Of a DNA stretch of 11,637 bases, positions 1,219 to 3,542 are shown piece after piece. Made by a program: the position numbers and the translations under genes. The DNA is from a virus (taxonomy: Duplodnaviria; Heunggongvirae; Uroviricota; Caudoviricetes), in the IMG/VR virus record IMGVR_UViG_2534681675_000022. One strand, given 5' to 3'. The notes under the pieces were generated by a model that was given only the letters and a program-made list of their open reading frames with translations, searched no databases and had not been told where the DNA came from. Numbering within the stretch: the first letter of the stretch is position 1; each line of letters begins with the position of its first letter.

Positions 1219-1401
1219 TTTTTTTCGTGTTTTTTCAGTATGCGCATACTGGATAAGTGCACAGATACAACGTGAAACAATGTGCAACAACGTGACACAA
1301 TCACGAACAAGAGGCCAAAAAGAATACAGATTTGTAAGTTACTGATTTTTAATGCTCAGCTGGTTTTTTATACATTAGTGAATTACGCGTTAAAGCGTGC
1401 G

Positions 1402-1438
1402 AAAAAAGGCATAAAACAAGATTTTATGCCTTTGTATT
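1402..1438. terminator. Hairpin with flanking A-run and T-run; candidate bidirectional intrinsic terminator between int and alpA
   Basis: GGCATAAAA (1408-1416) / TTTTATGCC (1422-1430) 9-bp stem with 5-nt loop, preceded by AAAAAA and followed by TTTGTATT; reads as hairpin plus U-run on both strands. Confidence 0.35.
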
Positions 1439-1592
1439 AACATGAATTTAAATGATTTTATCCTGATTATTCCTCTTTCTGTAAACCATGCGACACCAAC
1501 ATTTGCCAACTCTGAATCATCCTGACACAATCAGACACATCCCAACGCAATAGAACACGAAATAACTCTTTAAGAAACGAAAGGGGGCAATA

Positions 1593-1781: not shown

Positions 1782-1922
1782 AAAGACTGGCGGCACACAG
1801 TCGCCACACATCCACTAATACAGAGATATAACTATGAAGATTGAATATGCGCCCGAACGTGGGCGGGGATTCGTTCGCCCTGGTGAAACTGAAAAACAAC
1901 AAAATTGGGGTTTTTCAGGCAT

Positions 1923-1951
1923 AAAAAAAGCGGCCCCGATATGGAGCCGCC
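1923..1951 (-). terminator. Intrinsic terminator on minus strand, downstream of the 2025-2228 minus-strand ORF
   Basis: On the minus strand: GCGGC stem, 12-nt loop, GCCGC, then seven T residues. Confidence 0.4.
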
Positions 1952-2024
1952 TTTCTGAACAATTAACCTGCTGCGCCTTATGTGTATGTGATCCCAAACA
2001 TAAGCACGGGAATGATAGCCGCTA

Positions 2025-2228
2025 TCAGGCTGGTGGGCAATTACCTTGCTTGTTGGGGCCGTATTGTGCTGCCATTTTCATCCGTTCAGAACGTGAATAT
2101 TTTTTTAGAAACTCATCAAGGACAAAAGCGCATGGAGCGAATCTTTCTGATTCATGCTCGAGCGCCATATTTTCGTGCTCTCTGTTCGTTTTTTGCGATG
2201 GTGTATTGGTTGATTCTTTATTGGTCAT
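2025..2228 (-). CDS. Hypothetical small protein (67 aa), paralog 1 of a duplicated pair
   Basis: ORF begins MTNK, shares the motif F-x-L-[DE]-[DE]-F-[LV]-x-K-Y with the 2686-2913 ORF, is preceded by the same conserved leader and followed by a minus-strand terminator. The overlapping plus-strand ORFs are Cys/Ser/Arg-rich and look non-coding. Confidence 0.45.
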   Translation of the reverse strand: MTNKESTNTPSQKTNREHENMALEHESERFAPCAFVLDEFLKKYSRSERMKMAAQYGPNKQGNCPPA

Positions 2229-2233
2229 TGTGT

Positions 2234-2279
2234 GTACCTGTAAAGCAATGCGCCGGAGTTCCTCACGCCACGGCGCTGA
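2234..2279. repeat. Conserved ~45-bp leader element, copy 1 (5' of the minus-strand ORF 2025-2228)
   Basis: About 44 of 47 positions identical to 2923-2966. On the minus strand it reads ATCAGCGCCGTGGCGTGAGGAACTCCGGCGCATTGCTTTACAGG, containing a GCGCCG/CGGCGC 6-bp stem. Confidence 0.6.
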
Positions 2280-2521
2280 TGTTTTTTATTCTTTGGGTTC
2301 AATACCGCGTTGCTGTAATTCTTTTCGGATTATTCGTTTTATCCAAGCTGCTAAAGAGTCATCACCGTCTTGTTGTTGTGCTTTTTCCATCTTTTCCCGT
2401 AAGTCAGGATCTAAACGGAACTGGAAAGGAGGATTACCACGCCTTTCATTTTTGTGTGTTGACACGTCAATTACACCCCATATAATGTGTTTATGTGTAT
2501 ATACACATTACACACAACTAG

Positions 2522-2566
2522 CACAAAAAACAACGCCCCGCAGTGATGGGAACACATACGGGGCGT
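2522..2566 (-). terminator. Intrinsic terminator on minus strand, downstream of the 2686-2913 ORF
   Basis: ACGCCCCG / CGGGGCGT 8-bp stem with 18-nt loop; on the minus strand it is followed by TGTTTTTTGTGC. Confidence 0.4.
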
Positions 2567-2685
2567 CTAACCAAACCATTAATTGAGGTAACGATTATGG
2601 CTATAAAAGAGCATAGCTTACTCTTTATACACACACAAACGCCCCGGAAACGGAATAATCCGTTTCATAGTTCGGTTTTGTGCAC

Positions 2686-2913
2686 TCATCCTGGCGGTCG
2701 GTTTTTGCCGGATTTAAGCCGCCGTGGGTATTTATCGACAAAATCTTCAAGGGCAAATTTTTCTGGTGGCACTAAGCGCGGCGCTGGTGGTGGTATTTTT
2801 GTTCTGGTTAGTTCTTCCTCAAGTCTGGCGCAGGCTTCTGACTGCCTTTGCCGGATGATTTCATCATCTTGCGTTTGCGTGTCTTGTATTGGTGATAGTG
2901 TGTTGTTGGTCAT
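2686..2913 (-). CDS. Hypothetical small protein (75 aa), paralog 2 of a duplicated pair
   Basis: ORF begins MTNN, contains FALEDFVDKYPRR (compare FVLDEFLKKYSRS in the 2025-2228 ORF), and has the same leader immediately 5'. Confidence 0.45.
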   Translation of the reverse strand: MTNNTLSPIQDTQTQDDEIIRQRQSEACARLEEELTRTKIPPPAPRLVPPEKFALEDFVDKYPRRLKSGKNRPPG

Positions 2914-2922
2914 GTTACTGCC

Positions 2923-2966
2923 CTGTAAAGCAATGCGCCGTAGTACCTCACACCACGGCGCTGATA
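2923..2966. repeat. Conserved ~45-bp leader element, copy 2 (between RHH gene stop and ORF 2686-2913)
   Basis: Near-identical to 2234-2279. The three differences all fall in the loop of the GCGCCG/CGGCGC hairpin, so the stem is preserved. Confidence 0.6.
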
Positions 2967-2970
2967 GTGA

Positions 2971-3150
2971 TTATTCTGATTCTTTGGCCTTGCGGCGCTG
3001 GCGGCGTTTGATCTCGCCTTCAAGTGCCGAAACGATAAATTGCCCTGTACTTTCGCCATCTTCCTTTAAATTTTCTACAGCATCAGCTATTGCGTGTGGT
3101 ACTCGAGCCTCAAGCTTTTTGGATTTTGCATTAACTGCTTTTGTTGCCAT
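2971..3150 (-). CDS. Ribbon-helix-helix (Arc/MetJ/CopG-like) DNA-binding protein, 59 aa; candidate island repressor
   Basis: Internal ATG at 3148-3150 with a GAGGAAA Shine-Dalgarno; the ORF track's longer 106-aa version has a poor N-terminus. MATKAVNAKSKKLEARVPHAIADAVENLKEDGESTGQFIVSALEGEI fits the RHH strand/helix/G-x-S/helix pattern (compare Arc ...NLRWPREVLDLVRKVAEENGRSVNSEIYQRV). Divergent from the rightward operon. Confidence 0.5.
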   Translation of the reverse strand: MATKAVNAKSKKLEARVPHAIADAVENLKEDGESTGQFIVSALEGEIKRRQRRKAKESE

Positions 3151-3171
3151 ATCTGATTTCCTCGTTATTAG

Positions 3172-3251
3172 GTGGCTGACAGTATACACACAAGAAAACG
3201 GAAAAACACTATTGACGTGGCTGACACCCGTTACTAATATAGTGGCTGACA
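3172..3251. promoter_or_regulatory. Divergent control region: three direct repeats GTGGCTGACA overlapping a sigma70-like promoter
   Basis: Perfect 10-bp GTGGCTGACA at 3172-3181, 3217-3226 and 3242-3251. TTGACG (3212-3217), 17-bp spacer, TAATAT (3235-3240) faces the plus-strand operon; repeats overlap the -35 and abut the -10. Confidence 0.5.
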
Positions 3252-3344
3252 CCTTTATCAAGGTAATCGATGAAAAGACAAAGCCCCGCAAGTGTCGTTA
3301 CCACTCGCAGGGCTTCTAACCAACAACGTAAACTAGGAGCCGTT

Positions 3345-3542
3345 ATGGTTGCCGTAAATCATATACCACACCTTGTACACACACAAACTGCCTTTGTGTG
3401 GCGTTTTCTGGCCCTGAGTGCCGGAGAATCTCAAATCATCCACGTCACCGCCTGGACGGAACGCGAAGCGCGTAACCGTTGCCCGTCCGGTTGTGTTGCT
3501 GTATTTGCCGCCCGTATTCGTCAGGAGGTGCGCCATGATTAA
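3345..3542 (+). CDS. Hypothetical protein (65 aa), first gene of rightward operon
   Basis: ATG at 3345 preceded by AGGAG; the longer ORF-track version starts upstream of the RBS. Stop overlaps the start of the next ORF. Confidence 0.5.
   Translation: MVAVNHIPHLVHTQTAFVWRFLALSAGESQIIHVTAWTEREARNRCPSGCVAVFAARIRQEVRHD

Follow-up and report, generated by a model that had tools for sequence, protein, structure and literature searches.

Intercistronic stem-loops are known to set differential expression within operons, as is the case for the repetitive extragenic palindromic (REP) hairpins in malEFG and for the hairpins of the papBA and puf operons. In the immunity region of phage P22 the sar RNA ends in the spacer between arc and ant, and the modular theory of mosaic lambdoid phages includes conserved “linker” sequences at module boundaries. 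Here we describe a 44-nt hairpin element that occurs twice on the minus strand of an 11.6-kb satellite island of Escherichia coli, recognized as such from its gene calls and annotation (IMG/VR record IMGVR_UViG_2534681675_000022; the whole stretch of 11,637 nt is referred to as the window). Each copy lies between the gene for a small predicted ribbon-helix-helix (RHH) protein and a small open reading frame (ORF). The element is real, widespread and under selection; its exact job is what we infer.

Like the hairpins of malEFG, papBA and puf, the element is a stable hairpin with a poor U-tract between two cistrons, the upstream of which encodes a regulator needed at another level; it differs from them in being a family-specific 44-nt unit, where REPs occur genome-wide, with a fixed tail, an integrated Shine-Dalgarno (SD) sequence and no match in Rfam. 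The arc-ant/sar segment of P22 immI likewise combines a small RHH repressor gene, a short structured spacer and a second gene that needs limits, within the immunity region of a mobile element. In contrast to P22, the present locus has no conserved antisense promoter and no Rfam sar match, the constraint falls on the sense tail, and the downstream protein (58-76 aa) is unrelated to Ant. Lambda cI-rexAB is comparable in that a repressor is co-transcribed with accessory genes in the quiescent state and the downstream slot is variable, although the protein folds are others and nothing like the conserved hairpin junction has been described for lambda. As with the lambdoid linkers, a constant block is flanked by interchangeable modules; here, however, the constraint is internal, structured and oriented, which passive linkage leaves unexplained. 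RNA immunity of the P4/P1 type (CI/C4 RNA with seqA/seqC targets) has been reported in some Gram-negative phage-inducible chromosomal islands (PICIs; PMC10111431). It shares with this locus a short RNA motif that is repeated within a satellite's control zone, beside an icd-like gene, but in the window there is no C4 or isrK match at E≤1, the repeats are direct and on the same strand with no complementary partner found, and the regulators encoded in the control zone are proteins (RHH).

Stem-loops between cistrons or in 5' untranslated regions (UTRs) are a familiar class, to which the element belongs as a member not described before, and the hairpin itself is probably an ordinary type of intercistronic signal. 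The zone from alpA to the replication genes has been called only “dynamic” in a survey of PICIs (PMC10111431), and the master repressor of Gram-negative PICIs has been called unclear (PMC6092414). In E. coli, the model island EcCICFT073 included, this control zone has a defined architecture consisting of an RHH regulator, a structured RNA junction and a small-protein family apparently confined to Escherichia. The hairpin offers a compact 44-nt handle, in a tractable model island, on the balance between repressor and cargo and on the exchange of control modules. The hypervariable RHH proteins with their co-varying operators, sometimes arranged in tandem, may interest specialists more than the hairpin.

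Two cassettes and their repeated element

The initial annotation had described two minus-strand ORFs of 67 and 75 aa, both starting with MTN and sharing a motif, as a duplicated module in which each paralog is preceded by a near-identical 5' leader, and had located this module between alpA and the replication operon, in an accessory slot. The two ORFs (2025-2228 and 2686-2913), their common motif and the location are as it stated, and the repeat is evident as well: the two 44-nt copies are identical at 41/44 positions (43/46 with the borders first drawn), while the flanking 40-column windows are just 10-21/40 identical, which makes them unalignable. The pattern GCGCCG-N15-CGGCGCATTGCTTTAC has exactly two matches in the window, at 2240-2276 and 2925-2961, and 0 matches in 200 shuffles. 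A non-coding block conserved so far beyond its coding flanks points to a cis-acting element, and in this core the initial inference holds. The leaders, however, are intercistronic spacers, each following an RHH gene that had been overlooked, and the flagged region comprises two complete two-gene units beyond the two small ORFs.

In cassette 1, all on the minus strand, the first gene encodes RHH1 (3150..2971, 59 aa, YlcI/YnfO family) and is followed by a 57-nt spacer, the small ORF alpha (2913..2686, 75 aa; MTN..., FALEDFVDKYPRRLK...NRPPG) and an intrinsic terminator near 2590..2525 (GACGCCCCG...CGGGGCGUUGUUUUUU). Cassette 2, on the same strand, consists of the gene for RHH2 (2465..2286, 59 aa, Arc-like), again a 57-nt spacer, the small ORF beta (2228..2025, 67 aa; MTN..., HESERFAPCAFVLDEFLKKY) and an intrinsic terminator at 1951..1923 (GGCGGC...GCCGC and U7), which is convergent with alpA and is kept in the O157:H7 and Nissle loci. 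These operon-end structures, with U runs of 6 and 7 and located past the small ORFs, are predicted to be the true terminators of both operons.

Each copy of the element forms part of a 57-nt spacer, its hairpin starting 9 nt past the RHH stop codon. Copy 1 (2922..2965, minus strand) is made up of AUCA, a stem-loop at 2935-2961 and the tail AUUGCUUUACAGG, which contains the SD sequence of the 75-aa ORF; copy 2 (2237..2280, minus strand) has its stem-loop at 2250-2276 and the same tail, with a mismatched upper stem. In copy 1 the 6-bp GC clamp extends, G-U pairs included, to a stem of 11 bp (-19.3 kcal/mol, z=-3.3), while copy 2 folds at -13.7 kcal/mol with the three variant positions unpaired. 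As these three differences all lie between the 6-bp GC arms, the initial description of them as loop differences holds where the stem is taken to be the GC clamp, but fails for copy 1, which pairs the same positions in its 11-bp stem. A covariance model built from 28 element variants scores copy 1 at 75.4 bits and copy 2 at 72.1 bits.

The element has the GC-rich stem-loop of an intrinsic terminator, and copy 1 was flagged by a consensus scan. Among 10 nt of the tail (AUUGCUUUAC), 5 are U, and in the commonest variant (AUUGCUAUGC) 4 are, so that read-through is expected and the element would be a weak terminator at best. A cmscan of the whole window against Rfam 15 at E≤1, with sar, C4 and isrK among the families covered, returned four weak matches, none of them in 2025-3150. 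Neither the element nor RHH1 was matched, as DNA or protein, in GenBank phage records, and a literature search for the element sequence returned unrelated papers only. Two further readings were considered and dropped: a boxA/nut-like reading of UGCUUUAC, given that the commonest variant departs from boxA, and a CsrA site formed by loop and SD, given that GGA is not conserved in the loop.

Distribution and selective constraint

Copies of the element were sought in other islands, as the initial annotation had suggested, and were found with many RHH and ORF types in 1666/5426 complete E. coli genomes (59-nt query spanning copy 2), at 2737 sites and with up to 7 per genome; this wide spread with differing flanks rules out the recent local duplication that had been named as the alternative. 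In IMG/VR, 44 loci were recovered by the exact pattern and >120 by a relaxed scan. In EcCICFT073 the element (NC_004431.1 1380424-1380467) is flanked by a YlcI/YnfO gene on one side and an ORF of 57 aa on the other. Among 185 copies from IMG/VR and E. coli loci, the placement is that between an RHH stop and a small-ORF start, with the 9-nt distance and the 57-nt spacer, although exceptions exist. The flanking genes are diverse: upstream, at least 29 different ORF translations were counted, the RHH proteins varying strongly in their N-terminal half, and downstream nearly all the copies examined have a small ORF belonging to one family, of the types alpha (75 aa), beta (67 aa) and gamma (58-62 aa). 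Nearly all combinations of RHH type (A/B/C) with ORF type (alpha/beta/gamma) were found, and three polymorphic positions within the element occur in most of them. In a sample anchored on the ORF by a 20-mer inside the beta/gamma ORF, and thus chosen independently of the hairpin, the element is present upstream of 127/127 beta/gamma ORFs.

Two kinds of exception are instructive for the layout. The variant GCGCCGTGATGTGAGTAACTACGGCGCATTGCTATGTAAA, present at locus L054 and at 12 more loci in IMG/VR, stands behind an RHH gene of the long type and has lost the SD CAGG; at these 13 loci, AT-rich non-coding DNA lies where the small ORF would be. The common L048-type lineage has no RHH gene; its element occurs once in the 5' UTR belonging to an alpha-like ORF and a second time between this ORF and the next. 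In L048 itself (2225-2990) and in 21 metagenome contigs, the array reads element, alpha-like ORF, element, an ORF ending in ...DKTRPPH, and a third ORF; the lineage represents degenerate islands, with the array adjoining transposase fragments.

Beyond these, the covariance model detected no hairpin by the RHH homologues of Salmonella, Klebsiella, Yersinia and Serratia, and a scan of GTDB genomes with a pattern for the RHH C-terminal peptide gave one locus, in E. ruysiae, without the hairpin. The family of element and small ORF appears to be confined to Escherichia, and with no hairpin outside this genus a deep covariation analysis is impossible.

Nucleotide diversity was calculated from 80 haplotypes of the ORF-anchored sample. 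It amounts to 0.053 and 0.042 in the 5' and 3' stem arms and to 0.079 in the 13-nt tail 3' of the stem (AUUGCU.U.CAGG, including the SD), against 0.251 in the 13 nt 5' of the stem, 0.209 in the upper stem and loop, 0.242 in the SD-ATG spacer and, for the three codon positions in turn, 0.18/0.16/0.24. Clamp and tail are thus 3-5 times less diverse than the neighbouring codons, and are under purifying selection relative to neighbouring neutral sites. Since the low diversity is found in the clamp and in the tail on its sense side, the constraint is local, structured and oriented to the strand of the RHH gene and the ORF.

Pair counting over the 28 variants gave 87.5% of cells paired, as opposed to 24-59% with slid partners, and double changes in 5/12 pairs; the observed values were reached by 0-5/500 shuffles, with few independent events in a shallow clade. 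In the L048 lineage the stem base has changed from GC, CG, GC to UA, UA, GU, and in 39 metagenome copies, picked by loop and tail only, the two arm states were matched in all. Cells with G-U number 68 vs 8 with A-C. In 24/28 variants the sense hairpin equals or exceeds its antisense counterpart in stability, often by 2-9 kcal/mol.

Proposed role and rival explanations

We propose, with slightly less than even confidence, that the element is a sense-strand mRNA stem-loop and ribosome-binding module that sets how much of the small ORF is expressed compared with the repressor, be it through leaky termination, processing or stability, these being biochemical activities that we infer. Its parts would be the stem-loop, whose 6-bp GC clamp is topped by a variable upper stem, the fixed single-stranded AUUGCU.U., and the SD sequence CAGG of the small ORF. 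The RHH gene would be transcribed leftward from the divergent control region, its product probably repressing the icd-like/primase operon, and the hairpin, starting 9 nt past the RHH stop codon, would stand just clear of the terminating ribosome. Most likely it would uncouple the two cistrons, by causing leaky termination or pausing and/or by protecting the 3' end as a hairpin beside a cleavage-prone AUU tail, leaving the repressor mRNA abundant and stable and the small ORF expressed at a lower, separately set level from its own standardized ribosome-binding site (RBS). Whichever of these applies, the block, being constant while the flanking genes are not, is evidently also the homology patch through which RHH and small-ORF types are exchanged between islands. 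The 9-nt placement, the poor U-tract, the invariant AUU...GCU tail and the integrated SD together point to a post-transcriptional or weak-termination signal, and among the functions listed by the initial annotation an attenuator or processing site is the best class of explanation.

A number of observations weigh against this proposal. In the covariance check of the stem put forward by the initial annotation, the double changes and the compensated stem base come from few independent events, and the RNAalifold consensus retains only the 5-bp base of the stem with a negligible covariation term of -0.13; the compensation of the stem base probably arose once in evolution. Among derived changes there is no strand bias (9 compatible with the sense strand only vs 8 with the antisense strand only), and within the beta/gamma group the whole element (0.117) is just modestly less diverse than the ORF. 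As the family is confined to Escherichia, its conservation could in part be due to gene conversion and a recent spread. Intrinsic termination is unlikely to be efficient given a U-tract that is poor, and poorer in the commonest variant, and the L048-type element in a 5' UTR without an RHH gene indicates that stabilizing the 3' end of the RHH mRNA is not the sole function.

The main rival, which we consider fairly unlikely, is a regulated attenuator or a site for a trans-acting factor such as AlpA, a helper-phage antiterminator, CsrA/Hfq or the arginine-rich tail of the RHH or gamma proteins. It would account for the element standing in a 5' UTR right after the promoter region and again between ORF1 and ORF2, positions in which a constitutive terminator makes little sense, and for the near invariance of AUUGCU beyond what an SD requires; potential binders are seen in the arginine-rich RHH tail GEIKRRQR, invariant across genera, and in the gamma-type ORFs, which carry an RKRRRRK stretch. 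The loop and upper stem, which are the parts usually read by a binder, nevertheless evolve at a neutral rate (0.21), B-type RHH proteins without an arginine-rich tail have the same hairpin, GGA is not conserved in the loop, and the Rfam search at E≤1 matched nothing in the region. Another explanation is a passive homology linker, spread by recombination or gene conversion among co-resident PICIs, in which the hairpin is incidental and only the RBS functional. The occurrence of nearly all RHH and ORF combinations with similarly mixed internal polymorphisms, the up to 7 copies per genome, the Escherichia-only family, and the RHH genes of Salmonella, Klebsiella, Yersinia and Serratia without the element all fit such a linker, which we nonetheless judge to be unlikely: diversity in the arms and tail is 4-5 fold below that of the upper stem, 5' flank and SD-ATG spacer a few bases off, an uneven pattern on a fine scale that recombination alone does not cause, and the stem base is compensated in the divergent lineage.

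Action on the plus strand, be it as a terminator or insulator against transcription from alpA or from the promoter at 2459-2486 or as the end of a sar-like antisense RNA, is in our estimate very unlikely. Copy 2 is followed on the plus strand by UGAUGUUUUUUAUUC, the perfect sigma-70 promoter at 2459-2486 points through cassette 1, and P22 sar provides an analogy. The antisense U-tract region, however, is neutral-like (0.25) and U-rich only behind B-type RHH genes, not A or C, three G-U pairs become A-C mismatches so that the antisense hairpin is weaker in most variants, and no sar match was obtained from Rfam. In 97 distinct segments covering the first 200 nt of the small ORFs, no antisense promoter recurs at a conserved position; on this ground, and because the antisense tail is variable, a sar-like antisense RNA is not supported. 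The perfect 6-bp inverted repeat GCGCCG/CGGCGC, with centres 21 bp apart and adjoining the RHH gene, could be thought of as a DNA operator bound by an RHH dimer, in line with the regulator-binding site that had been among the first suggestions. We regard this as extremely improbable, and for the adjacent RHH proteins the suggestion is contradicted by their operators, which co-vary with RHH type. The N-terminal segments differ between islands, and every RHH type has its own GTG-N5-CA 10-mer in 2-4 copies in the divergent promoter (window 3165-3255; ~50 loci); the DNA-reading segments of the RHH proteins co-vary with these repeats, whereas the hairpin is constant behind >25 RHH variants. The same hairpin also stands behind unrelated B-type RHHs and in places without any RHH gene nearby. 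The position, orientation, distribution and selective constraint of the element are established, as is that it is not the RHH operator. A more far-reaching scheme, in which the RHH-hairpin-ORF cassette is an immunity switch of Gram-negative PICIs with the hypervariable RHH protein, in dozens of operator specificities, as master repressor, the ORF as an anti-repressor or anti-helper effector, the hairpin as a regulated attenuator by which helper phage or AlpA would free small-ORF expression and switch the island to its lytic programme, and the tandem as double immunity, seems to us quite doubtful.

Regulators, cassette junction and host island

RHH1 matches NF041551 (E=1.1e-16) and phrog_949 (E=3e-23) and is annotated as YlcI/YnfO in an identical RefSeq record; RHH2 matches the Arc-like repressor phrog_228 (E=1.5e-6) and, weakly, YlcI_YnfO_N (E=5e-4). 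The AlphaFold2 (AF2) monomer of RHH1 shows an extended N-terminus followed by two helices (predicted local distance difference test, pLDDT, 82), and its top PDB folds are RHH proteins (ParD1 with TM 0.67, TacA2, pCXC100 ParB), but at E>1 for this short chain; a sequence search of the PDB with the RHH profile returned nothing relevant. RHH1 is presumed to be the repressor of the divergent icd-like/primase operon. The divergent promoter/operator region of cassette 1 (3172..3251, plus strand) holds three direct copies of GTGGCTGACA, at 3172-3181, 3217-3226 and 3242-3251, which overlap the -35/-10 elements of the icd-operon promoter (3212-3240). The type-specific repeated 10-mers look like the signature of a repressor with many “immunity” specificities, and the YlcI/YnfO RHH protein is a candidate for the master repressor of Gram-negative PICIs.

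The C-terminal G-E-I-K-R-R-Q-R is invariant in 36 aligned RHH proteins (2971-3015 in the window), a set spanning entries from Escherichia, Salmonella, Klebsiella, Enterobacter, Yersinia, Serratia, Pectobacterium and Edwardsiella; this arginine-rich tail resembles the RNA-binding arginine-rich motif (ARM) peptides. RHH homologues in Salmonella, Klebsiella, Yersinia and Serratia occupy the slot between alpA and the primase operon and carry the GEIKRRQR tail. What lies 3' of the RHH gene varies: Salmonella has TumE and HVO_A0114-like genes there and Klebsiella nothing, while Yersinia and Serratia have AntA/pRha/Bro-N genes that read from the other strand, and the downstream slot appears to be a variable cargo site.

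The small ORFs alpha and beta have in common the MTN start and the motif F-x-L-[DE]-[DE]-F-x-x-K-Y and are just 25% identical. Alpha is annotated as a hypothetical protein and recurs in ~10 IMG/VR loci behind different RHH types, while beta matches phrog_21027 (E=2e-12) and has homologues in E. coli only (15 clusters). The AF2 model of beta has three helices (pLDDT 67), with high confidence only around the conserved ERFAPCAF.LE.FLK.Y helix. PADLOC and Pfam searches gave nothing credible for the small ORFs; the differences in diversity between codon positions amount to a weak bias only, and the alignment indels are multiples of three.

The junction between the cassettes bears on how the tandem, present in at least 9 loci including the window, arose. 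On the plus strand, the order between the cassettes is promoter, leader hairpin and icd' codons. The sigma-70 promoter (2459..2486, plus strand; TTGACA-16-TATAAT) is a perfect consensus (12/12); it is the early rightward promoter of cassette 2, now aimed antisense into cassette 1. The truncated icd' remnant (2597..2641, plus strand; MAIKEHSLLFIHTQT) consists of 15 codons matching the Icd-like N-terminus. In the single-cassette locus L040 an Icd-like ORF that is intact (MVAVNHIPHLVHTQT...) lies opposite the same promoter-RHH2 unit, which, together with the icd' stump here, shows the window to hold a tandem of two heterologous control cassettes joined inside icd'. As RHH1 and RHH2 give no alignment in BLASTP and icd' with its own promoter lies between the cassettes, the duplicated module of the initial annotation is not upheld; by these features the tandem consists of two heterologous regulatory cassettes and not of a duplication of one module. 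The promoter at 2459-2486, with the leader hairpin and the icd' stump behind it, would fire antisense into the 75-aa ORF, its hairpin and the RHH1 gene, towards the intact icd operon, and this orphan promoter may be a second, RHH2-controlled input to the lytic operon or a source of transcriptional interference.

The hairpin at 2525-2590, read on the plus strand, is the leader hairpin of the icd' unit and belongs to a repeat family that also includes the leader hairpin of the intact icd-like gene (3273-3316). The hairpins of this family are long and GC-rich, with an A-run before them on the plus strand, and their minus strand reads as a good intrinsic terminator; they could represent the end of an antisense RNA over the icd start or a C4-like leader structure, and gave no C4 or isrK match in Rfam. 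Stop-free plus-strand frames at 1834-2586 (250 codons) and 2543-3319 (258 codons) run antisense across both cassettes. They were rejected as genes on account of their Cys/Ser-rich, antisense-type translations, with likeness to Icd only in the 15 codons from 2597. In O157:H7 and Nissle 1917 the NCBI annotation pipeline PGAP calls the equivalent stretch an Icd-like pseudogene, partial in extent, which explains these long plus-strand ORFs.

The remainder of the island begins with the integrase gene (1-1218), followed by alpA (1593-1781), which lies between the integrase and the cassette region; on the other side of the cassettes, the Icd-like gene (3345-3542) stands at the head of the primase/replication operon side. 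Further genes encode a DUF4222 protein, primase/helicase, SSB, a lambda-E-like capsid protein, a decoration protein and other late functions. PICIs of the EcCICFT073 type combine int-alpA, a primase/replication operon and lambda-E-like capsid and decoration genes within ~10-11 kb; the window shares this layout and is, by its gene content, a Gram-negative PICI of this type. The capsid (c1499) and decoration (c1500) genes of EcCICFT073 have been described (PMC6092414), and the window carries homologues of both. In CFT073 the layout is as in the window, including the RHH-hairpin-ORF module, and positions 1800-3420 recur with 100% identity in E. coli 2011C-3911, in which the island lies inside tqsA. 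In the gap between int and alpA, positions 1369-1450 (plus strand) have a weak Rfam match to the Brucella small RNA BSnc120 (27 bits vs a gathering score of 114, E=0.008); in essence an AT-rich hairpin (AAAAGGCAUAAAA...UUUUAUGCCUUU), this site probably represents the terminator of int.

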